Positions 19,100 through 37,142 of a DNA stretch of 37,142 nucleotides are shown here, one piece after another. The notes under the pieces are model-generated. The model had not been told where the DNA came from. It saw only the letters and a list, made by a program, of their open reading frames with translations, and did no database searches. The position numbers and the translations under genes are program-made. Every line of letters begins with the position of its first letter. Positions within the stretch are counted from its first letter, which is position 1. This DNA comes from a virus (lineage: Duplodnaviria > Heunggongvirae > Uroviricota > Caudoviricetes). The stretch lies in IMG/VR virus record IMGVR_UViG_2737471867_000005, one strand, 5' to 3'.

Positions 19100-19750
19100 T
19101 CAGCGGCTGTCATTGCGCAGTCTGCGCTCCAGCTGCTGTTTGTCTTTTTTCACGCCACAGCGGGGATCGAGCTGTAACGCATGGTTGAGATGATTAAGGG
19201 CAGACGCCGGATTTCTTTCACTCAGGACAGCGCCAATCGCTTTATGCAGACGCGCCCGTGACTGGTCCGGCATATCCATACCGTCTGTCAGCTCCAGGGT
19301 CTGCAGCAACAGATCGACATCAAAGCCGGTGGCGGCAAGCATTGCGCTCTGGGCTGCATCTGCCATTTCCTCTGCCAGCACGGTCTGCACGTTGCGGTTA
19401 CCTAACGGCATCACCCAGCCATGACGCAGGGCGTGATGCCCGATCTCCAGCGCCCCGGCATAATCTCCGGCATCAATGCGCCACAGCATCACGTACATCA
19501 GCACGTCATCCTGTTGAGCGCCTCCGGCAGCCAGGACACCCTCCGCCCAGGCGGCGTACTTCGGCAGCAGCTCCACCTTGATTTCCGCTTTTTTGACCGT
19601 GGACTGAACGCCCTTGAGACGGCGGCGGTCTTCCGCCAGTTGCAGCAGCATCAGGTCATAGCCCGACGCGTGGCGAACGCTGCCGCCCTCGCGGGCGGCC
19701 TGTTCAGCCTGAACGCGCAGGCGATGCTGCCGTGCGGGACTCAGGCTCAT
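19100..19750 (-). CDS. M: terminase small/endonuclease subunit M
   Basis: 216-aa ORF after N, P2 order. Confidence 0.82.
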   Translation of the reverse strand: MSLSPARQHRLRVQAEQAAREGGSVRHASGYDLMLLQLAEDRRRLKGVQSTVKKAEIKVELLPKYAAWAEGVLAAGGAQQDDVLMYVMLWRIDAGDYAGALEIGHHALRHGWVMPLGNRNVQTVLAEEMADAAQSAMLAATGFDVDLLLQTLELTDGMDMPDQSRARLHKAIGAVLSERNPASALNHLNHALQLDPRCGVKKDKQQLERRLRNDSR

Positions 19751-21804: not shown

Positions 21805-23571
21805 ATGAACACCACACTGACACCCGCAGATCTCGATCCCCGTCGGCAGGCCATGCTGCTGTACTTTCAGGGATACCGCGTAGCCCGCATTGCTGAAATG
21901 CTGGGCGAGAAAGTTGCAACCGTTCACAGCTGGAAAAAACGCGACAAGTGGGGTGACTATGGGCCGCTGGATCAGATGCAGCTCACCACCGCCGCACGCT
22001 ACTGCCAGCTCATTATGAAGGAGCACAAAGAAGGGAAAGATTTCAAAGAGATTGACCTGCTGGCGCGCCAGTCGGAGCGCCATGCGCGGATCGGCAAGTT
22101 TAACAATGGCGGCAACGAAGCCGACTTAAACCCTAACGTCGCCAACCGCAACAAAGGCCCACGCCGTCAGCCGGAAAAGAACGTTTTCACCGATGAACAG
22201 ATTGAGAAGCTGGAAGAAATTTTCCATTCCTCCATGTTCAACTACCAGCGCCACTGGTGGGAAGCCGGAAAAACCAACCGCATCCGCAACCTGCTGAAGT
22301 CACGCCAGATCGGCGCGACCTTTTACTTTGCCCGTGAAGCCCTGATTGACGCCCTGCTTACCGGACGTAACCAGATTTTCCTTTCCGCCAGTAAGGCACA
22401 GGCCCACGTCTTTAAACAGTACATCATCGACTTCGCCAAAGAAGTAGAGGTGGAGCTGAAAGGCGATCCGATGGTGCTTCCCAACGGGGCCACACTGTAT
22501 TTCCTCGGCACCAATGCCCGCACGGCCCAGAGTTATCACGGCAACCTGTATCTGGATGAATATTTCTGGATACCGAAATTTCAGGAGCTGCGCAAAGTGG
22601 CTTCCGGTATGGCTATTCACAAAAAATGGCGACAAACCTATTTTTCCACGCCATCCAGTCTGACACACAGTGCTTATCCGTTCTGGTCCGGTGCGCTGTT
22701 CAACCGTGGGCGCAACAAAGCCGATAAGGTGGACATCGACCTGTCCCACAGCAATCTGGCCCCCGGCCTGCTGTGCGCAGACGGGCAATACCGCCAGATA
22801 GTCACCGTGGAAGATGCGGTACGCGGCGGCTGTAACCTGTTCGACCTCGACCAGCTACGCATGGAGTACAGCCCGGATGAATACCAGAACCTGCTGATGT
22901 GCGAGTTTGTGGACGATCTCGCGTCCGTGTTTCCGCTCAGCGAGCTGCAGGCGTGCATGGTGGACAGTTGGGAAGTCTGGACCGACTTTCATGCACTGGC
23001 GCTGCGCCCGTTTGGCTGGCGCGAAGTGTGGATCGGTTATGACCCGGCAAAAGGCACGCAAAACGGCGACAGCGCCGGATGCGTGGTGGTGGCACCGCCA
23101 GCCGTGCCGGGTGGTAAGTTCCGCATTCTTGAGCGTCACCAGTGGCGCGGGATGGACTTCCGCGCCCAGGCTGACGCCATCAAAAAACTGACCGAACAGT
23201 ACAACGTGACCTATATCGGTATCGACTCAACCGGCGTTGGTCACGGGGTTTACGAGAACGTGAAAGCGTTTTTTCCTGCCGTCCGGGAGTTTGTCTACAA
23301 CCCCAACGTTAAAAACGCCCTGGTACTCAAGGCCTACGACATTATCAGCCACCGCCGTCTGGAGTTTGACGCCGGACACACCGACATAGCGCAGTCCTTT
23401 ATGGCAATCCGTCGCGCCACCACCGCCAGTGGCAACCGCCCGACCTATGAAGCCAGCCGCAGCGAAGAAGCCAGCCACGCCGATCTGGCCTGGGCAACGA
23501 TGCACGCACTGTTTAACGAACCGCTGCAGGGCGAATCCGCCAATACCAGCAATATTGTGGAGATTTTTTGA
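21805..23571 (+). CDS. P: terminase large (ATPase) subunit P
   Basis: 588-aa ORF. Confidence 0.9.
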   Translation: MNTTLTPADLDPRRQAMLLYFQGYRVARIAEMLGEKVATVHSWKKRDKWGDYGPLDQMQLTTAARYCQLIMKEHKEGKDFKEIDLLARQSERHARIGKFNNGGNEADLNPNVANRNKGPRRQPEKNVFTDEQIEKLEEIFHSSMFNYQRHWWEAGKTNRIRNLLKSRQIGATFYFAREALIDALLTGRNQIFLSASKAQAHVFKQYIIDFAKEVEVELKGDPMVLPNGATLYFLGTNARTAQSYHGNLYLDEYFWIPKFQELRKVASGMAIHKKWRQTYFSTPSSLTHSAYPFWSGALFNRGRNKADKVDIDLSHSNLAPGLLCADGQYRQIVTVEDAVRGGCNLFDLDQLRMEYSPDEYQNLLMCEFVDDLASVFPLSELQACMVDSWEVWTDFHALALRPFGWREVWIGYDPAKGTQNGDSAGCVVVAPPAVPGGKFRILERHQWRGMDFRAQADAIKKLTEQYNVTYIGIDSTGVGHGVYENVKAFFPAVREFVYNPNVKNALVLKAYDIISHRRLEFDAGHTDIAQSFMAIRRATTASGNRPTYEASRSEEASHADLAWATMHALFNEPLQGESANTSNIVEIF

Positions 23572-24599
23572 TGGGAAAGAGTAAGAAGAACCGCGCTGCG
23601 GCGACGAAACAGATCCAGCTTAAAAGTCAAACTACAGCCGAAGCATTCAGCTTCGGCGATCCCGTTCCTGTTCTGGACCGCCGAGAACTGCTGGATTATG
23701 TGGAATGCGTACAGATGGACCGCTGGTATGAGCCGCCCGTCAGCTTTGACGGACTGGCGCGCACCTTCCGCGCTGCCGTGCATCATAGTTCCCCGATTGC
23801 AGTAAAGTGCAACATTCTGACCAGCACCTACATCCCTCACCCGCTGCTCAGCCAGCAGGCTTTTTCGCGTTTTGTTCAGGACTATCTGGTATTTGGTAAC
23901 GCCTACCTGGAGAAACGCACGAACCGCTTCGGTGAAGTTATCGCCCTTGAACCTGCCCTGGCAAAATACACCCGACGCGGGTTAGACCTGGATACCTACT
24001 GGTTTGTGCAATACGGTATGACCACGCAGCCATATCAGTTCACGAAAGGCAGCATCTTTCATCTGATGGAACCGGACATCAACCAGGAGATCTACGGCCT
24101 GCCCGGTTATCTTTCTGCCATTCCGTCAGCCCTGCTCAACGAGTCCGCCACGCTGTTCCGCCGAAAGTATTACATTAACGGCAGTCATGCTGGCTTCATC
24201 ATGTACATGACCGATGCCGCGCAGAACCAGGAGGACGTGAACAACCTCCGCAATGCGATGAAAAGCGCCAAAGGCCCTGGCAACTTCCGCAACCTGTTTA
24301 TGTACTCGCCTAACGGCAAAAAGGACGGGCTTCAGATTATTCCTCTGTCAGAAGTCGCGGCAAAGGATGAATTTTTGAATATCAAGAACGTGAGCCGGGA
24401 TGACATGATGGCAGCACACCGAGTGCCGCCGCAAATGATGGGGATAATACCGAATAATGTTGGGGGATTTGGGGATGTGGAGAAGGCTAGTAAGGTTTTT
24501 ATGCGTAATGAATTGATACCGCTACAAAACAGAATAGAAGAACTCAATAAATGGCTCAAAGATGACATAATAAAATTCATGCCATACAGTTTCATATAA
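23568..24599 (+). CDS. Q: portal protein Q
   Basis: 343-aa ORF; the last ~50 codons change to AT-rich codon usage. Confidence 0.88.
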   Translation: MMGKSKKNRAAATKQIQLKSQTTAEAFSFGDPVPVLDRRELLDYVECVQMDRWYEPPVSFDGLARTFRAAVHHSSPIAVKCNILTSTYIPHPLLSQQAFSRFVQDYLVFGNAYLEKRTNRFGEVIALEPALAKYTRRGLDLDTYWFVQYGMTTQPYQFTKGSIFHLMEPDINQEIYGLPGYLSAIPSALLNESATLFRRKYYINGSHAGFIMYMTDAAQNQEDVNNLRNAMKSAKGPGNFRNLFMYSPNGKKDGLQIIPLSEVAAKDEFLNIKNVSRDDMMAAHRVPPQMMGIIPNNVGGFGDVEKASKVFMRNELIPLQNRIEELNKWLKDDIIKFMPYSFI

Positions 24600-24605
24600 A
24601 ACTAA

Positions 24606-24624
24606 GGGCCGAATACCTCGGCCC
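24606..24624. terminator. GC hairpin between convergent Q and the accessory gene
   Basis: GGGCCGA-atacc-TCGGCCC; weak T-tract on either side. Confidence 0.4.
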
Positions 24625-24630
24625 TCTACA

Positions 24631-26304
24631 TTAAGATTTATGGCTAAAGAGTATACCTGTAACAGAACGTTGATAGGCATCAAGCTTCTCTTGCCTCTGC
24701 TTAAATTTAGATTTGATATCACTAATACTCGGAATACCTATTACTCCAAGGCCTGCACTTAACGCCGCTAAAGTAGTATTGCCAGTCAGCGCTCCAGCAA
24801 TTGCTATAGCACCATTTGCGATACATGGTAGGACATCCAGTCCGTAAATTCTCAATTTCTCTTTTTGGGCTTTTGCAAGAATCCTTTGATGTTCAATAAA
24901 AGCCCGGTCTACATTATCAATTACTTTTTGCGTTGTCCTCGAAAAGCTCTCTGCCGAAGAATTGATTAAAGAGTCAACACCATTTGATAAGATGGATCTT
25001 ACATCCTCCATCAATTTGTTACGTCTCAACTCAATTATTTTATTGACCGGTACATTTCCTAACCATGAAAAACCATCTTGCATACCAGCAGATAACGCAT
25101 GAACCATATGCAAATTTTTTAGTTCAATATCATTGACATCAAAATTAAGAGATTCGTACTCAATAAGCCAAGTATAATAGAGCCAAGATGTGTCTGCATT
25201 TATATATGGAGTACTACCAAGTTCTTGTGCATTACATTTTGCTGAATAGGCTTGCGGCATTCTTCCAATGCAGGAAAGGAAAACCTCCATTCCAGCATAA
25301 TCACCAACAACATTACGTGATATTCTTTTTTTATCAGATAGTAGTTTTTCTAATTGAGTTTTTGGATTTAGCCCCCATGCTGTATCAAAAATAAGTCTAT
25401 CTGCTCTCTTAATATTTTTAAGAACAGCATCAATATCATTCATCGAATAACTAAAATCTTGAAATTCATCGTAGCTTTCGAACCGTCGATCATAGAGATA
25501 TTGCGCATGAGTCAGAGCATAAGGCTCACAAAAACTCATCAAATTTTTTTTGCTCTCAGTTTCAAAATCTCTTCTATCCGGCAAAATTAATACTATTGCT
25601 GGCTCTATATCTTCAAGCGCTACTTCTTTATATGTCATACATGTTAGGACATGCTTCAGAAGTATCCTTGTAAACTCAGCCTTATCTGACTTTTCATAGA
25701 GACGACCGACTCTTAATATAGGACATGGAAGTGAAATAGTATCAACATACAACCCTGCAATAGAGACAGCATTCTCATCAAATGCAGGAAATAAGTCACC
25801 AGAAAAATTAGCTTTAAACTGAGAACCATCCTGCAAATGTATTACACCAATATCGGATGTTACCTGCCAAAACTCTATTACCTGATTATATAACTCAGGA
25901 AAAATACCTTCTATTTGCTTAACATATTCTTCTTGTTGAGAAAAAAAACTTGATGCTTTATGTGGCGTTGCATTAGTTTTTTTCATCAGATAAAACAACT
26001 CGCCAAAATTACTAAAAAGAATATTAAAGTAAGAACTTTGCAAGTCCTGAATAGAGTATTTGTTTTTTATATCTTCTCTTTCTAAAAAGTGATTAACCGC
26101 TGCTCCCATAGCCCTTATTCTGCCATCAACAGTAGAAGGGTCAACTTTACCATCCTGTCGCAGACTTATTCTTTTAAAACTTTCAATAAAACCTTCTACA
26201 AGATGATGAGCTATTTTTAGTTTTCCCGCTTCCAGTTGTTGCTTAATGAGAAAAACACGCTCAGTTAAATCGTCTACATATTCCTCATCTTGATATTTTT
26301 CCAT
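24631..26304 (-). CDS. uncharacterised 557-aa accessory protein with C-terminal glycine-zipper membrane segment
   Basis: Long AT-rich ORF with a GGAG RBS. C-terminal GAIAIAGALTG...LSAGLGVIGIP is hydrophobic and Gly-rich; no motif I can assign. Confidence 0.75.
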   Translation of the reverse strand: MEKYQDEEYVDDLTERVFLIKQQLEAGKLKIAHHLVEGFIESFKRISLRQDGKVDPSTVDGRIRAMGAAVNHFLEREDIKNKYSIQDLQSSYFNILFSNFGELFYLMKKTNATPHKASSFFSQQEEYVKQIEGIFPELYNQVIEFWQVTSDIGVIHLQDGSQFKANFSGDLFPAFDENAVSIAGLYVDTISLPCPILRVGRLYEKSDKAEFTRILLKHVLTCMTYKEVALEDIEPAIVLILPDRRDFETESKKNLMSFCEPYALTHAQYLYDRRFESYDEFQDFSYSMNDIDAVLKNIKRADRLIFDTAWGLNPKTQLEKLLSDKKRISRNVVGDYAGMEVFLSCIGRMPQAYSAKCNAQELGSTPYINADTSWLYYTWLIEYESLNFDVNDIELKNLHMVHALSAGMQDGFSWLGNVPVNKIIELRRNKLMEDVRSILSNGVDSLINSSAESFSRTTQKVIDNVDRAFIEHQRILAKAQKEKLRIYGLDVLPCIANGAIAIAGALTGNTTLAALSAGLGVIGIPSISDIKSKFKQRQEKLDAYQRSVTGILFSHKS

Positions 26305-26405
26305 AAACGCTCCATTAAAATATTTAATAATGCATATAAGAATAATTAATAATATTTACAGTAACTATATCACATTAGATCCAGATTGTTACACTGTTGC
26401 GCGCG

Positions 26406-26424
26406 CTCGTATCCCCGCCACGCC
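26406..26424. other. cos-like site (cohesive-end core)
   Basis: Minus-strand GGCGTGGCGGGGATACGAG matches the first 13 nt of the P2/186 cohesive end as I recall it (GGCGTGGCGGGGAAAGCAT), followed by GCGCGC. Confidence 0.55.
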
Positions 26425-26624
26425 TGCCCACTTTATGTAGTGGTTTTCATGCACCTGCATGACATAAGCAAAAGCACGCCAGTTCTGGCTGGCATCAGCG
26501 AAAACGATCGTCATACTATCATGCGATCTCATGCGCCATATGAAGTTTTCCTGACACAGCCTTGGGTTGGGATAACACCTAACTCAGGAAGATTTTTTGT
26601 GTGTTTGTAACCCACACCTAGAGT

Positions 26625-27794
26625 TTACCAATCCATGTTTGCGGCATTATCCATCTCACGAGTTAAGTAATTAACAAATAAGTCCATATTCCTTTCTGAT
26701 TTCATCGCCTCCGCATAGGTTCCATTAGTTACGTAAGATAGTATTAAAGGACATCCAGATTCAATATAAATTTTTGCTGGGGACAGTTCTCCCTGCCACA
26801 AATTTTCAAGGAAATCGTTAATTAATTGCATTGCTTCAGGTGCCAAAAAATGCACACCATTTCCAAACTTGAAACGTTCTTTATTTTCTCGATGAGGCAG
26901 CAATAGTGGCACAGCCCCTACACTTGAGTGAAATTCCAATGCTTGCCCATCCTTACCGAAGGCGCCATGGGCTACAAAATTACGCACCTGTTTTCTGAGT
27001 ATAAGTAAACGATCATAGAACAATTTTAGGCTGGAAGAGTTAATATCAATGGCTAATTTGAATTTCTCCCCCCATTCTTTTCCAACTTTATCAGCCACAT
27101 CATTCCCATTTTTTATCTCACCCTTCAAGATTGCAATAAGAATGAAAACATGCTCGGTCCAATTGAAAAATGACTCAATTGCAGACGTTGCTAACCACAT
27201 AGCCTCTCTTCGGAGTTCAATTATCTTATTTGATTGTTCAAAAGTGGATTGTAACAGGCTGAAAAAATTATCAGACTTAAACTCACTATCAACTTCCAGT
27301 TTAGACTCTTGGCCAGCAGCAACTTCATCAAGCTTCTGTTTATATAGCTCTAAAAAATAGCAAAACCTATCATAAAGAGAATTAGCATTGTTATTAACAT
27401 TTAGATTTGAAGTCTTTGCTGCATTGTCTGCAAGCGAATCAAAAAAATTCGTAGCAGCTTTAACCCCTGCGCAAATATGTCTCAAAACAGTTTTAGCTTG
27501 CTCTATATCATCATCACTCTTGATAAATATATCTAAACCAAGTTTACGATGTTCTATAATTACGACAGTCCCATCAATCCGGACTGGGATAGAAAAAGAA
27601 ATCTTCTCATCAACCCCACGATTTTTAAATTTCAGTAAATCTACCAAAAGAAAATAAACGAGATAATACGGAGGTAATGAGTCTCCCAAACCCGAGCGCT
27701 TACCCCAAAAATATTCATCAAGCTCGGCAGACTCCATTGTCCCTATGACTCTTCGGACGCGTTCTTCAACTTTAGCCAGATCCATTCCCCACAC
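26625..27794 (-). CDS. uncharacterised 389-aa accessory protein with HEPN-like R-x4-H motif
   Basis: AT-rich ORF; RNFVAH motif at plus 26967..26984. Start uncertain (GTG at 27794 or ATG at 27785). Confidence 0.7.
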   Translation of the reverse strand: MWGMDLAKVEERVRRVIGTMESAELDEYFWGKRSGLGDSLPPYYLVYFLLVDLLKFKNRGVDEKISFSIPVRIDGTVVIIEHRKLGLDIFIKSDDDIEQAKTVLRHICAGVKAATNFFDSLADNAAKTSNLNVNNNANSLYDRFCYFLELYKQKLDEVAAGQESKLEVDSEFKSDNFFSLLQSTFEQSNKIIELRREAMWLATSAIESFFNWTEHVFILIAILKGEIKNGNDVADKVGKEWGEKFKLAIDINSSSLKLFYDRLLILRKQVRNFVAHGAFGKDGQALEFHSSVGAVPLLLPHRENKERFKFGNGVHFLAPEAMQLINDFLENLWQGELSPAKIYIESGCPLILSYVTNGTYAEAMKSERNMDLFVNYLTREMDNAANMDW

Positions 27795-27955
27795 CGCCTT
27801 TCAATATCACTTAAGGTATTACAGCCAATGACATCGATTAAATACAGCGTAGATAATAGGCAACTTGCTACTGTTTTCAAGGGCTTTCTGTTTCAATCCT
27901 TAGTTGACCTTGCTGACGCGAGAATCTAGTTCTCACGCCAGCAACGCCCCTGCTG

Positions 27956-28144
27956 CTAACCGAGAAGATCCATTACACGGTTATATTCATGGGCACGAAT
28001 TTTCGCCATCAACTCATCAGTCAGCTCTGAAACCCACTGCAGAGCCAGCCCCTTCTCTTCATCACTACACTCACTAGCCGCTACAAGCTTAAGAAAAAAA
28101 TCAATGCGCTGGAGCTTCAAAGACTCCAAAAAATAGTCCTGCAT
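27956..28144 (-). CDS. small hypothetical protein (62 aa)
   Basis: ATG at 28144 preceded by a perfect AGGAGG-aaaa spacer; AT-rich. Confidence 0.55.
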   Translation of the reverse strand: MQDYFLESLKLQRIDFFLKLVAASECSDEEKGLALQWVSELTDELMAKIRAHEYNRVMDLLG

Positions 28145-28297
28145 TTTTCCTCCTATGACACCACAAGCAATACTGTATGCATAACCACTGTTTATATTTA
28201 CAGTATATAATAATCTTACTGATGTAAAACGTTTTTTTACGTTCATCAGCCTGATATGCCTGGTATTATTAAGAGCACGAATTGTTAATCCGCGTAA

Positions 28298-30712
28298 TTA
28301 ATACAGGTTCCGCCACTTATCATCTTCCCACAAACGCTGGTTCCGATAGAAGATACGCAAGCCTGCTCCTGACGGAATACTGCCGCCGCGAAGGAGTAAA
28401 TCGACCTCTTTCTCGCTGCCATCAAATCCTCTGGACTTCAGCTCATAGACGAGCTGCAGTCGCTGATGGTCTGTAATTCGCTGTTTGTAGTCTTTACGCC
28501 GTTTCGGTTTAACCAGGCGTAACCTTGCTGCCAGATCCCGGCGCTCTTTTTTGCTCATACTGTGCAGGTAATCGTGCAACTCCTTGTCATCCATGCGGGT
28601 AATGTCCGTTCTGGTGTCCCCATCAGCTGATTTATCTTTCTCCTGTTGGTTCAAATTTTCAGCAAGGGGACAGTTATTGCCACGAGTCCAAGGGGCGCAA
28701 GCGCCCTGGTCGGCTGCCGCCTCCTGAACGTCAACGGCTTTACGAACCATTTTCCACTTCACTGCATGAGTGCAGATCTTGCCCTCTGCAATGGGTGACC
28801 AGATGCCATAAATACGAATGCCGTGATCGCCATAGGCGGTCGGCTCTTCGTTGATTTCATAAGCGGTTCTGATGAGGTGATATTTACGGGGAACCAGTAC
28901 GCCGCCCTGCTTCATGATGTAGGTGGCAAAACAACCAGCATCAGCAGCAGCCAAGATGGCATCAAGGCGCGGGTTATCCAGTACCGGCGCACCTGCTTTT
29001 TTGTCCCCCTGTTGCCTTGCCGCCTGACCAGCCAGCAATCGCAGTTCACGGTAAGCCTGACGCCCCGGAATGCCAAAGAAGCGGAATTGCTGAACACGAT
29101 GCAAAGACGCCCAGGCGTTCACGTATTCAGCGTTATCACGCAGAGATTTACCCGTTTCCTTGCTGATCTCGCCAGCCAGACCACGCCCGTCAATGTTCTT
29201 ACTGATGTATTTCGCTATGTAGCTTGTCGGCGTTCCTTTGCGCGGGTTAATCAGCTCAGACTTAAAGCGCGGCCCCGTGTTATTGCCCAGCTCCTCGCGG
29301 TCTTCACGGATAGCAAACTTACGCAACAATGCAGTAATGGCGCGGCGGTCTTTTTTGCGCATGAAACACAACAGGTGCCAGTGAACTGTGCCGTCGTGAT
29401 GCGGCTCAGCCACCCGCACGCCATACCAGCGCAACCCGGCTTTGTGCATCGCCTTACGAAATGCAGCAAACATACCGACCAGATAATCGCTGCTTTGTCT
29501 TACCGTCGCATTTGTCCAGGTCGGGTTGGGCCTGCCGTTATTTAGCGTGGAATGGAAACGTGACGGACAGGTGATGGTGTAGAAAACGGCGCAGTCACCG
29601 CGCATTTCCGCGATAAGCTCCAGACCTTTAACACAGGCCATCATCTCATTGCGGCGATGCGCAGGGTTGCTGCTGCTGGCGTTTACCACATCCTCCATGT
29701 CCAGCGTGTCGCCGTCTTCGTTCACCAGTTCATGAGAACGGAAAAACTCCAGCGACTTACGGTGCTGCTCACGTTTATGCAACACGGCTTCATAGCTGAC
29801 ATAGGGAGATGCTTTTTTGCTGACAAGGCAGACAGCACGCAACTGCTCTTCCCGCCATTCGCAACGCATCTTCCATAATTTCCGATACCACCAGTCGGCG
29901 CACAACATACGCGCCAGCGAACCCGGAATGAGTTCATAGGGCACGGGTTTACGGCGGTTTCTTTTCCGACGGAGTTGCTCAAACGCAGGCGGGATGACAT
30001 CCAGACGCAGGGTTTCCGCTGCCACCCTTTCCCATGTATTGCGGATTTCTTCTGGCTTAACGTCATCGGTGGCATACAAATCGCCACAAGCGGCATCAAG
30101 GCACATACTCATATGCGCAGCTACCAGGGTGGACAGGCGTTTCACCTGATCCTGACTCATTTCAGGCAGGATCAGCAGGCCGTCCAGCCCTTCATGGCTT
30201 GCCATAAAGCGAAAAGATGCAGATAGCTGACTGTCGCGTACATGCTCCAGTCGTTCCAGACATGGCTTAATCGTCTCACGTAAATAGCGGGAATAAGCCT
30301 TTGGCCTGCCCAGGCTGCTGAAGTATTCAATACGTTGCATCAGCGGCTTGCTGATATGGGAAGGCTGGGCGTTGACGTCCGCCAGAATGACCATATCCGG
30401 ATTAAAACGCTGCTGCTCATGCGCCAGCTTTGCCCGACTAATGAGCTTATCCTGTTCCATTTCGCGCTGGACAGGATCACGGGATTCATTAAAGAAATAA
30501 CGCTCCCAGACCTGATCACTCAGCGCCTCACGGCGCAGCTGTTCCTGCTCGTTATCGGCAGCGTACAGAGTGATCAGGTTTGAAAGCGTAGAAACCGGCG
30601 CAACTTCCACCGTGTCCAGATAAGGGTTAATGGCCTTTTTCGGGCTGTTCCATGAGAACGATGCGGCGACCTCGTTAAAGCCGCTGCAGTTGTTCATATC
30701 AGCATGGCTCAT
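28298..30712 (-). CDS. A: rolling-circle replication initiator A
   Basis: 804-aa ORF in the P2 gene A position. Confidence 0.85.
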
Positions 30713-33712: not shown

Positions 33713-34309
33713 ATGTCAACATCAAAGTACCCAAGTGAGATCAAAATAAATCCCAATAAAGGTGGTAAGGCTGCGATTGAGCGATTAGTCGAAGCTTATG
33801 GCTTTACGACACGACAGGCTTTAGCTGATCACTTGGAAGTATCAAAAAGCACTCTGGCGAACAGGTATTTGCGGGATACGTTTCCTGCAGACTGGATAAT
33901 CCAATGTGCTCTTGAAACAGGAACCTCACTGAAATGGTTAACCACCGGGCAAGGACTTAAGCAAAGCTCGCTGACAGTAGCCACAGAAGAGCTTCCCAAG
34001 TTTCGCCTTACCGCAGGCAAAATGATTGAAGATGGTTCATATGTCTTCGATTCATCATTTCTTCCTGCAAATCTTTCATCACCAATTGTTATTCTGGATG
34101 GGCTTGTCACATACATTTGTGATCAAAAATTTTCTGAAGTACTTGATGGGCACTGGTTAATCAACATCGACGGAACCTATTCCATTCGAAAAATCACAAA
34201 GCTTCCAAAAGGTATGATTAAAATTACAACTACAGAGAATAGCTTTGAATGTGCATTTTCTGATATTGAAGTGGTTGCTTGTATAAGAAGTACAATAGTT
34301 TCAAATTGA
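33713..34309 (+). CDS. cI: CI immunity repressor (phage 186 type)
   Basis: 198-aa protein with an N-terminal HTH; position and sequence are 186 CI-like. Confidence 0.85.
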   Translation: MSTSKYPSEIKINPNKGGKAAIERLVEAYGFTTRQALADHLEVSKSTLANRYLRDTFPADWIIQCALETGTSLKWLTTGQGLKQSSLTVATEELPKFRLTAGKMIEDGSYVFDSSFLPANLSSPIVILDGLVTYICDQKFSEVLDGHWLINIDGTYSIRKITKLPKGMIKITTTENSFECAFSDIEVVACIRSTIVSN

Positions 34310-34329: not shown

Positions 34330-36006
34330 ATGAATTCATTTTCCATCGTTATATTCTTATTAGCATTTCTCGCCCCTGTTCTAGCTATAATATTATTTAA
34401 GCAAAGTAAAGAACACAAAACCGCCATAGATAACCTGACGGCTAACAACATAGCTCTTTCCAGCCAACTGAAAGAAAATCAAGAAGAATTAGCACAGACT
34501 GTACGAGATCTATCAGAGCTTGAAGGACGAGCTGCACCATTATGGCAATACGTAGAATTGCACAGCGCAGTGATGGAAGCAGAGAATAAGATAAAAAATG
34601 CAGACTCAATAGCCAGGCAAAAAATAGAAGAAGCCCAAATAAAGGCTGCTAAGACAGTAAACGAAGCAAATTATCAAGCTCAGATAACAATAAGCAACGC
34701 TAATAGCGAAGCTATAGCAATCACCAAAGACGCTCGCGATGCACGCCTGAAAGCCAAAGAACGTCTTGATAATGCCAACAGTAAAGCAAATGAGCTGATC
34801 TCAAATGCTAATGACAACGCAGTAAAAATTATTTCCGATGCAGAAGAAAGAGCAAAAGAGATTGCTGGTTCAGCATATGAAGCTAAAGAGTTTGCAGAAA
34901 AATATGAAGCAGTTGCCAAATCAATGAAAAATAAAATTGAAGGTTATGGCGATGAATGGATCATCCCTAACCGTAGTGTACTTGATGAATTGGCAGAAAA
35001 TTATGAGTTTACAGATGCAGGCAAGGAATTACAAAAAGCCAGGGAGTTAACAAAATCATTAATAAAAACTAATAAAGCAGCTTCGTGTGATTATGTTGAG
35101 CCAAACAGGCGTAATACTGCTATCAACTTTGTTTTGGATGCCTTCAATGGAAGAGTTGACAGTATTTTATCAAAAGTCAAACACAACAATTTTGGAAAAC
35201 TTTCCCAAGAAATAAAAGATGCATTTCAACTTGTAAATTATAATGGCTCTGCTTTTAAATCCGCAAAAATAAGTGACATCTATCTTCAGGCACGACTCAA
35301 CGAGCTAAAATGGGGAGTTGCAGTTAATGAAATTATGCTCAAAGAAAAAGAGGAGCAAAGAAGGATTAAAGAACAGCTTCGTGAAGAGGAAAGAGCTCGT
35401 AGAGAGTATGAAAAAGCGATAAAAGAAGCCGAAAAAGAAGAGAAAGCTATTCAGCAAGCTATAAATAAAGCGACGAAAGAGCTTATGCTTGCAAATGAAG
35501 AACAACGCTTAGCTTTAGAGCAAAAAATAGCTGAACTACAGTTAAAATATGAAGAAGCTGAAGCTAAAAACCAACGAGCTATTTCTATGGCTCAACAAAC
35601 TAGATCAGGCCATGTTTATATAATTAGCAATATTGGCTCATTTGGCGAAGATGTATATAAAATTGGAATGACACGCCGCCTTGAACCACTTGATCGTGTT
35701 CGTGAACTTGGGGATGCTAGTGTTCCTTTTTCGTTCGATGTTCATGCGATGATTTATAGTGATGATGCACCGTCATTAGAAAATCATCTGCATAAAGTCT
35801 TCAACGAAAAGCAGGTCAATAAAATTAACTCACGAAAAGAGTTTTTTAACGTAAATATTAAAGAAATTAAATCGGTTATTGAAGATATGAACATCAATGC
35901 CCACTGGACAATGTTTGCAGAGGCGAAAGAATATAGAGAGTCACTAGCTATTGAGCAGGAACGCAAAGCAGCCACTTCCGCCAACGATGAACTACATGTT
36001 GCTTAG
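34330..36006 (+). CDS. membrane-anchored coiled-coil protein with C-terminal T5orf172/GIY-YIG-like domain
   Basis: N-terminal TM helix (FSIVIFLLAFLAPVLAIILF), a long K/E/A-rich coiled coil, and a C-terminal GHVYIISN...YKIGMT motif from about 35608. AT-rich; inserted between cI and int. Confidence 0.8.
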   Translation: MNSFSIVIFLLAFLAPVLAIILFKQSKEHKTAIDNLTANNIALSSQLKENQEELAQTVRDLSELEGRAAPLWQYVELHSAVMEAENKIKNADSIARQKIEEAQIKAAKTVNEANYQAQITISNANSEAIAITKDARDARLKAKERLDNANSKANELISNANDNAVKIISDAEERAKEIAGSAYEAKEFAEKYEAVAKSMKNKIEGYGDEWIIPNRSVLDELAENYEFTDAGKELQKARELTKSLIKTNKAASCDYVEPNRRNTAINFVLDAFNGRVDSILSKVKHNNFGKLSQEIKDAFQLVNYNGSAFKSAKISDIYLQARLNELKWGVAVNEIMLKEKEEQRRIKEQLREEERARREYEKAIKEAEKEEKAIQQAINKATKELMLANEEQRLALEQKIAELQLKYEEAEAKNQRAISMAQQTRSGHVYIISNIGSFGEDVYKIGMTRRLEPLDRVRELGDASVPFSFDVHAMIYSDDAPSLENHLHKVFNEKQVNKINSRKEFFNVNIKEIKSVIEDMNINAHWTMFAEAKEYRESLAIEQERKAATSANDELHVA

Positions 36007-36089: not shown

Positions 36090-37142
36090 ATGGCAGTACG
36101 AAAACTCACCACAGGAAAATGGCTGTGCGAATGTTATCCCGCCGGACGTAGTGGACGTCGTGTGCGTAAACAATTCGCCACCAAAGGCGAAGCTCTGGCT
36201 TTTGAGCGTCACACGATGGAAGAAACCGAAGCAAAGCCCTGGCTAGGTGAATCAGTGGATCGTCGAACACTGAAAGATGTGGTTGAGCTATGGTTCAAAC
36301 TACATGGTAAATCACTGACTGCTGGGCAGCATGTCTATGACAAATTGCTGCTGATGGTTGACGCTCTGGGCAATCCCCTTGCAACTGATCTAACCTCTAA
36401 AATGTTTGCCCACTATCGAGATAAACGCCTGACAGGCGAGATCTACTTCAGCGAGAAATGGAAGAAAGGAGCAAGCCCGGTCACCATTAACCTGGAGCAA
36501 AGCTATCTAAGTAGTGTTTTTAGCGAACTATCCCGTCTGGGCGAATGGTCGTATCCGAACCCACTGGAGAACATGCGAAAATTCACCATCGCAGAAAAAG
36601 AGATGGCATGGCTTACCCATGAGCAGATTGTTGAATTGCTGGCTGATTGCAAACGTCAGGACCCAATTCTGGCACTGGTAGTTAAGATATGCTTAAGCAC
36701 AGGCGCACGCTGGCGTGAAGCCGTAAATCTTACCCGCTCACAGGTGACCAAATACCGAATTACCTTTGTCAGAACGAAGGGGAAGAAAAACAGAAGCATC
36801 CCTATCAGTAAAGAGCTTTACGAAGAGATCATGGCGCTCGATGGGTTCAATTTCTTCACAGACTGCTATTTTCAATTTTTATCCGTGATGGAAAAAACGT
36901 CTATCGTGCTCCCTCGCGGTCAACTCACACACGTTCTGCGCCATACGTTTGCAGCGCACTTCATGATGTCGGGTGGAAACATTCTGGCCTTACAAAAAAT
37001 TCTCGGACACCACGATATAAAAATGACTATGCGTTACGCACATCTGGCACCGGATCATCTGGAAACGGCGCTCCGTTTCAATCCTCTGGCAACGCTGCCA
37101 AGTGGCGACAAAGTGGCGGCAGCGGTTGGCATTACCCCGTAA
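36090..37142 (+). CDS. int: tyrosine integrase (P2 Int family)
   Basis: 350-aa ORF with C-terminal HxLRHT and MRYAHL catalytic tyrosine region; its stop codon is the last 3 nt of the window. Confidence 0.9.
   Translation: MAVRKLTTGKWLCECYPAGRSGRRVRKQFATKGEALAFERHTMEETEAKPWLGESVDRRTLKDVVELWFKLHGKSLTAGQHVYDKLLLMVDALGNPLATDLTSKMFAHYRDKRLTGEIYFSEKWKKGASPVTINLEQSYLSSVFSELSRLGEWSYPNPLENMRKFTIAEKEMAWLTHEQIVELLADCKRQDPILALVVKICLSTGARWREAVNLTRSQVTKYRITFVRTKGKKNRSIPISKELYEEIMALDGFNFFTDCYFQFLSVMEKTSIVLPRGQLTHVLRHTFAAHFMMSGGNILALQKILGHHDIKMTMRYAHLAPDHLETALRFNPLATLPSGDKVAAAVGITP

Follow-up and report, generated by a model that had tools for sequence, protein, structure and literature searches.

A very probable Fels-2/E. 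coli HS-type cos packaging site between two accessory genes of a P2-family prophage

The window analysed here, a stretch of 37,142 nucleotides from a virus of the Caudoviricetes (IMG/VR record IMGVR_UViG_2737471867_000005), carries a P2-family prophage with an estimated size of ~34.5 kb, which lies within the range of packaged relatives, from 33.6 kb in P2 to 35.2 kb in SEN8. The host gene ybjL is found at 935-2620, and a candidate att core, ATGGGTTTTTTGTT, at 2765-2778 recurs 75 bp past the integrase stop codon in the closely related prophage of E. coli 1283. Integration was between ybjL and rcdA, and the prophage belongs to the Fels-2/E. coli HS type. Its gene order is A, a 62-aa ORF, a 389-aa gene, cos, a 557-aa gene, Q and P, with gpM also present (Table 1). 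As in the P2 family generally, cos thus lies between the A side and the portal gene Q, and the cognate terminase genes are there. This order bears out what an earlier note on the same DNA had described: the A-to-cos slot holds the 389-aa gene, the 557-aa gene separates cos from Q, and accessory genes thus stand on both sides of cos. The cos-to-Q slot is bounded on the right by Q, whose stop codon is 1806 bp from the cos core, and the A-to-cos slot is bounded on the left by gene A, with 1873 bp from the core to its stop codon.

Table 1. Features of the cos region and of the neighbouring prophage genes in the window
Feature	Position	Strand	Remarks
gpM, terminase endonuclease/small subunit	19100..19750	-	212/216 identical to E. 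coli HS gpM, 202/216 to SEN8 gpM
gpP, large terminase	21805..23571	+	588/588 identical to E. coli HS prophage gpP
Portal gene Q	23568..24599	+	Pfam Phage_portal; 325/343 identical to E. coli HS portal
Hairpin terminator belonging to the cargo cassette, between the 557-aa and Q stop codons	24604..24626	-	Hairpin differs with each right-hand cargo
557-aa cargo gene	24631..26304	-	cos-to-Q slot; weak partial PADLOC DitB match
Entire intergenic space, 557-aa ORF to 389-aa ORF	26305..26624
AT-rich leader of the right-hand cargo cassette	26305..26398	-	Promoter-like site GTAACA-17-TGnTATAGT, 26364-26392, directed away from cos
CGCGCGC (C plus GCGCGC), directly right of the cohesive end	26399..26405	-	Five-way alignment
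19-nt cohesive-end core GGCGTGGCGGGGATACGAG, Fels-2/E. coli HS type	26406..26424	-	Exact single match
Left arm, positions -120 to -1	26425..26544	-	Mostly 80-100% per-position identity, ungapped, over 118 distinct IMG/VR flanks
Inverted pair TCATGCA / TGCATGA, proximal TGCAT-type repeat copies	26447..26462		Kept in the five-way alignment
Terminator-like hairpin and T-run in the left arm	26476..26495	-	Same position as 186 terminator t95b (186 annotation)
Two direct TCATGCG copies 10 nt apart, distal TGCAT-type repeats	26519..26535		Aligned with GTGCATGAGATTGCAT of P2
Last 80 bp of the left-hand cargo cassette, from the 389-aa stop codon to the cos module	26545..26624	-	Not conserved in relatives; hairpin 26561-26588
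389-aa cargo gene	26625..27794	-	A-to-cos slot; RefSeq start 27785
62-aa ORF, conserved, after gene A in the lineage	27956..28144	-	92% identical to E. coli HS ORF
Replication gene A	28298..30712	-	Pfam Phage_GPA, E 1e-126

In searches against Pfam, NCBIfam and PADLOC, the 557-aa protein gave only a weak and partial match to DitB, and the 389-aa protein only a sub-threshold match to Csx1_HEPN. We take DitB to be the B gene of the Aditi system; a literature search on the name 'DitB' returned no relevant paper. Both protein families are widespread and are annotated solely as hypothetical proteins, and that of the 389-aa protein is large, extending from Enterobacterales to Alphaproteobacteria. 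The R-N-x3-H motif of the HEPN-like 389-aa protein is invariant, and the model of the protein resembles the AbiA/HEPN fold; we regard its gene as a candidate new HEPN defence gene. The same protein (WP_032248694) is listed as a hypothetical protein in the catalogue of the P2 hotspot (Rousset et al. 2022, PMC9122126). Each cargo gene has a promoter-like site of its own, that of the 389-aa gene at 27853-27880 and that of the 557-aa gene within the leader next to cos. Both genes may have a defence function and are reasonable candidates for anti-phage testing.

The 389-aa gene takes the place of a DinI/Tum-like gene that relatives carry at this point. In Fels-2, E. coli HS, SEN8 and MLG42 this gene follows the 62-aa ORF, and here the corresponding stretch is 27795-28297; no match to a DinI/Tum-like gene was found anywhere in the window. 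Tum is an SOS-dependent antirepressor according to the annotation of the 186 record. Since the DinI/Tum-like gene is missing, the prophage may not be SOS-inducible, and the loss could affect induction, though not packaging.

In the intergenic space between the two cargo genes we identified the 19-nt core on the minus strand, at exactly the place where the earlier note had seen it, although the next letters are a C and then GCGCGC and not GCGCGC directly. The 26-mer formed by the core and CGCGCGC occurs once in the window and in none of 100 shuffled sequences. It follows the core form of the P2 family, GGCG(A/T)GGCGGGGA...... and then.GCGCGC, on the minus strand of 26399-26424; the annotated cohesive ends of P2, 186 and PSP3 align to the core, as does the beginning of the P4 record. 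The sequence that the earlier note had given as the P2/186 core, GGCGTGGCGGGGAAAGCAT, is the true cohesive end of 186 and PSP3, whereas that of P2 is GGCGAGGCGGGGAAAGCAC. Compared with 186, the core differs at 4/19 positions, all of them among the last six, and the 186 core itself had no match in the window at up to 3 mismatches. A search of the whole window with the pattern GGCGWGGCGGGGAN7GCGCGC at up to 3 mismatches returned nothing beyond 26399-26424, and loose-pattern searches of the window found no better cos candidate, an outcome on which the earlier note had made its identification depend. The core ending ATACGAG, the exact 26-mer and the module from -120 to +26 place the site in the Fels-2/E. 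coli HS subtype, and Fels-2 and Yersinia phage MLG42 have this core, followed by GCGCGC, without any change.

The core is part of a conserved asymmetric module of ~146 bp (26399-26544), made up of a 120-bp left arm, the 19-nt core and CGCGCGC. We aligned the window with the joined ends of P2, 186, P4 and SEN8, and found five stretches to be invariant in all five sequences, or nearly so: TGCAT..TTGCAT as a distal pair (about -112 to -95), TGCAT.AAAACC (-32 to -19), AAG.GGGC (-9 to -2), the 13 nt that open the core, save for A/T at position 5, and GCGCGC (+21 to +26). Family-wide recognition sequences flanking cos have been described as the '55-bp core' (Ziermann & Calendar 1990, as cited in PMC5694545), and conserved flanking sequences of this kind are present in our own alignment of the four phages and the window. 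From their conservation we infer that the left-arm motifs are elements recognised by the terminase; that the TGCAT repeats in particular have this role is speculative.

The extent of the module was read from 118 distinct flanks, drawn from 120 IMG/VR contigs with the exact 26-mer, among the matches listed. Across these flanks the sequence is conserved from -120 to +26, and identity falls to random directly beyond +26. Similarity to relatives ends 7 nt right of the cohesive end, homology with relatives bearing other cargo stops at 26397/26398, and the module block matches 77 phage records at 80-95% identity. Because conservation is confined to -120 to +26, the ~146-bp asymmetric module appears to be the functional unit. 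P4 is packaged by the terminase of P2, and the sequence common to P2 and P4 is therefore the best available guide to what the terminase reads. P4 departs from P2 directly after GCGCGC, at the same point where the window departs from its relatives.

The left arm contains a terminator-like hairpin, which would halt transcription arriving from the side of A and the 389-aa gene ahead of cos. Its fold energy is -11.2 kcal/mol in the window vs -23.1 kcal/mol in the family consensus, so that substitutions have roughly halved its predicted stability, and the weakened hairpin might permit read-through from the 389-aa gene across cos. The same hairpin variant is found in contigs L082 and L041. Overall, the left arm is identical to the family consensus at 106/120 positions (median 110 over 120 IMG/VR loci, among the matches listed), which leaves 14 differences, and at least 15 family members are further from the consensus than the window. 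We also considered the private substitutions of the left arm as a sign of decay and rejected this, because they lie within the divergence range of the family and all the family-wide motifs are kept.

On the whole, it is very probable from the comparison of sequences that 26305-26624 holds the cos packaging site of a ~34.5-kb P2-family prophage of the Fels-2/E. coli HS type, inserted between ybjL and rcdA. The cos-like site proposed in the earlier note is upheld by its alignment with the joined ends of P2, 186, P4 and SEN8 and by the invariant motifs that it shares with them. We think it very unlikely that the site is instead a decayed relic, with a core or left arm that has drifted until the prophage could no longer be packaged. 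Such a reading can draw on the four of the last six core positions that differ from 186, which the earlier note had taken as possible degradation, but read-start analysis and PhageTerm placed the cos of the E. coli HS prophage, induced with mitomycin, at the identical 19-mer (Zund et al. 2021, PMC8008629, Suppl. Table 4). This 19-mer is also annotated as the putative cos of SEN8, a plaque-forming phage purified from plaques and by CsCl (PMC5427200), and with GCGCGC it is unchanged in all of E. coli HS, SEN8, Fels-2 and MLG42. The recurrence of the 19-mer in these four indicates that the ATACGAG ending marks a lineage subtype and not decay. The 14 left-arm substitutions and the weakened hairpin could likewise be taken for drift, and strain S43, which has the same left arm, carries a prophage with large deletions; against this, the motifs common to P2, 186 and P4 are all intact, and members of the family more divergent from the consensus number at least 15. 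Moreover, neither terminase gene is truncated, and both are 98-100% identical to their E. coli HS counterparts, and in the prophage of strain 1283, with a cos region (24500-28400) that is 99.9% identical, no pseudogenes are flagged among the structural and replication genes.

A different kind of damage would have left the core intact: by inserting only 7 nt away from it, the 557-aa cassette could have removed right-hand sequence needed by the terminase and so impaired packaging. P2 and 186 have ~160 bp of conserved DNA right of cos, including the terminator tQ/tW, and relatives with an empty slot keep a P2/186-like conserved flank (GCGCGCAACGGGGTGAAATGGTGAAAAT...) that the window does not have. 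We nevertheless hold this to be very unlikely, since E. coli HS, with mapped ends, and the plaque-forming SEN8 also have unrelated cargo directly after GCGCGCA, P4 diverges from P2 at the same point while being packaged by the P2 terminase, and the ancestral right flank is missing in 86% of the contigs with a Fels-2-type cos, among the matches listed. It is hardly credible that the match is a chance GC-rich resemblance or belongs to an element with no part in packaging, such as a small gene or an RNA. A short hypothetical ORF is indeed annotated over the site in RefSeq and in one phage record, but the shuffled sequences gave no match, the ~146 bp are conserved without gaps at the nucleotide level and are syntenic between A and Q in the records examined, and the site aligns to the annotated cohesive ends of P2, 186 and PSP3. 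An Rfam search of 24500-28400 with E values up to 1 returned no RNA family.

The short ORF calls over the module are the 41-aa hypothetical protein WP_265327973.1 of RefSeq, which overlies it in E. coli 1283 (window 26389-26514, minus strand), and a similar 47-aa call in the MLG42 record. Both calls probably reflect spurious ORFs that happen to cover a conserved DNA element. For annotation, it is of some value to note that the RefSeq 'hypothetical protein' covers a conserved non-coding element and is probably no real gene.

Given a functional cos, established P2 biology suggests how the site would work. The terminase, consisting of gpM and gpP, would recognise the module and nick the two strands 19 nt apart. 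Judging by the identity of its sequence, gpP is the enzyme expected to cut cos at 26406-26424, and the core is expected to be nicked in a staggered fashion at its two ends. Cleavage of the window copy would thus yield 19-nt 5' cohesive ends, and the virion DNA would have 5' overhangs of GGCGTGGCGGGGATACGAG. It would start with the core and then the 557-aa gene, and end with the 389-aa gene and then the left arm; because cos would be cut between the cargo genes, the two would lie at opposite ends of the linear virion genome. The DNA from 7 nt right of the core to the Q stop codon can be regarded as a free slot, as all conserved sequence ends there, and this slot is filled by the 557-aa gene with its own outward promoter-like site and terminator. 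A second free slot, from the A operon to the left arm, is filled by the 389-aa HEPN-like gene.

Among known systems, the E. coli HS prophage is similar in its identical 19-nt cohesive end plus CGCGCGCA, its identical gpP and 98% identical gpM, and its gene order of A, orf62, left cargo, cos, right cargo and Q. Its module is identical to that of the window at 124/146 positions, with all differences between -120 and -40. However, the cargo differs on both sides, since in E. coli HS cos is flanked by a 225-aa gene on the left and one of 463 aa on the right, and DinI is kept there. The Salmonella phages SEN8 and Fels-2 (Felsduovirus) have the same cos core and also carry genes in the cos-to-portal and DinI-to-cos intervals: of the three such genes of SEN8, two separate cos from the portal gene and the third lies on the opposite side, and Fels-2 has a 565-aa gene between Q and cos. 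They differ in host genus and cargo, and gpQ of the window is identical to that of SEN8 at only 285/344 positions. With 186/PSP3, P2 and P4 the site shares the architecture of 19-nt 5' cohesive ends, the left-arm motifs, GCGCGC and the position between the A side and Q, and with 186 also the first 13 nt of the core. In P2, 186 and PSP3, unlike the window, Q follows ~170-180 bp after cos with only a terminator between.

Insertions between cos and Q have long been noted. This interval was proposed as an insertion hotspot in P2-like phages by Dodd & Egan 1996 and Nakayama 1999, as both are cited in PMC5694545; by the same account, the former described the retrons Ec67 and Ec86 as replacing DNA between cos and a terminator of a 186-related prophage, and the latter concerned phiCTX. 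ORF1-4 of phiRSY1 are another such case (PMC5694545). The window resembles these phages in that foreign genes stand between cos and the portal gene, where phage functions are described as undisturbed (in the account of the hotspot in PMC5694545), but its cargo is an uncharacterised 557-aa gene and not a retron, toxin or Vgr-like gene. In Rousset et al. 2022 (PMC9122126), the cos-proximal stretch from A to Q, which in P2 is the old/tin 'TO region', also appears as a P2 defence hotspot with 1,650 arrangements, and a 2026 NAR paper uses the same A-to-Q definition. The whole interval described here corresponds to this published hotspot, whose catalogue includes the 389-aa protein; the difference is that both papers treat one locus, whereas here cos splits it into two slots that assort independently.

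We compared slot occupancy in IMG/VR contigs taken from the matches listed, up to 120 per cos type (loci L012-L375), in which related contigs were not collapsed and proportions are therefore indicative only. Contigs with a Q homologue right of cos were counted, and the slot was taken as filled when more than 500 bp lay between cos and Q. Among the matches listed, the slot was filled in 75/87 contigs with a Fels-2-type cos (median 1662 bp, maximum 3537 bp), the other 12/87 having a P2-like spacing of 162-188 bp, and cargo was present on both sides of cos in 34/58. The corresponding numbers, likewise among the matches listed, were 7/98 for the P2-type cos and 24/104 for the 186-type cos, the latter with another 14 contigs at 251-500 bp. 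Occupancy of the cos-to-Q slot depends on cos subtype, to the extent that these indicative counts can be read. The earlier note had implied that cargo between cos and Q is unusual, but in the Fels-2-type contigs of the matches listed it is found in the majority.

The two slots also differ in the direction of their genes. The longest ORF of the right slot runs from cos toward Q in 74/75 loci (IMG/VR L012-L131, among the matches listed) and in 40/41 unrelated protein families, whereas cargo orientation in the left slot is mixed (36 vs 17, among the matches listed). Cargo of the P4 hotspot is found in either orientation (Rousset et al. 2022, PMC9122126), and neither that study nor the 2026 NAR paper contains a discussion of cargo orientation in P2-like phages.

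Left and right cassettes have been exchanged independently among related prophages. The complete E. coli genomes H50-H55 share 26398-28400 with the window at 99.7-99.8% identity and have other right-hand cargo (a TIR gene in strain S43), while the complete genomes H32-H47 and H49 share the 557-aa gene and cos up to 26540 but differ in their left-hand cargo, which is DinI or other genes. Overlap between these two tracts of homology is confined to the cos module, a pattern that fits cassette swapping by homologous recombination with cos as one shared anchor. Every right-hand cassette brings a terminator hairpin of its own, and with it the final codons of Q vary (24590-24630 and the same stretch in relatives). 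Since both vary by cassette, the right recombination joint would lie inside the 3' end of Q and not at the conserved tQ terminator.

Based on these observations, we tentatively suggest, as a possibility that we rate below even chances, that the cos module is not only a cut site but also an insulated recombination anchor, on either side of which the P2 hotspot forms a cassette slot with rules of its own. The right slot begins 7 nt after the cohesive end, and the left slot is set apart from cos by the terminator built into the module. This arrangement could mean that transcription coming from either side has to be kept away from cos; that the polarity of the right cargo and the built-in left terminator keep transcription out of cos is speculative.

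An arrangement with cargo on both sides of cos is usual in the Fels-2/E. coli HS lineage and had been known before, as follows from the cos-to-Q hotspot (Dodd & Egan 1996, Nakayama 1999) together with the A-to-Q hotspot (Rousset et al. 2022). The analysis therefore adds little that is new: the position at which the DNA of this prophage would be cut for packaging is confirmed, and two uncharacterised accessory genes are placed in well-known variable slots. Catalogues of the A-to-Q interval would nevertheless gain in accuracy if they were split at cos, because the two halves assort independently.

Two further observations concern cargo elsewhere in the prophage and in a relative. A third cargo slot is occupied by a 558-aa gene (34330-36006, plus strand) between the CI repressor (33713-34309) and the integrase (36090-37142); its product has DUF4041 and T5orf172 domains and matches PD-Lambda-1 of PADLOC with an E value of 2e-119, and the gene is not present in the prophage of E. 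coli 1283, whose stretch corresponding to 24500-28400 matches the window at 99.9%. In addition, the circular 'plasmid' CP019275.1 of E. coli 13P477T (37,446 bp) consists of an entire P2-like phage genome with the same 557-aa gene adjoining cos. The chromosome of this strain also has a copy of the phage, and CP019275.1 looks like an excised and circularised phage captured in the assembly.
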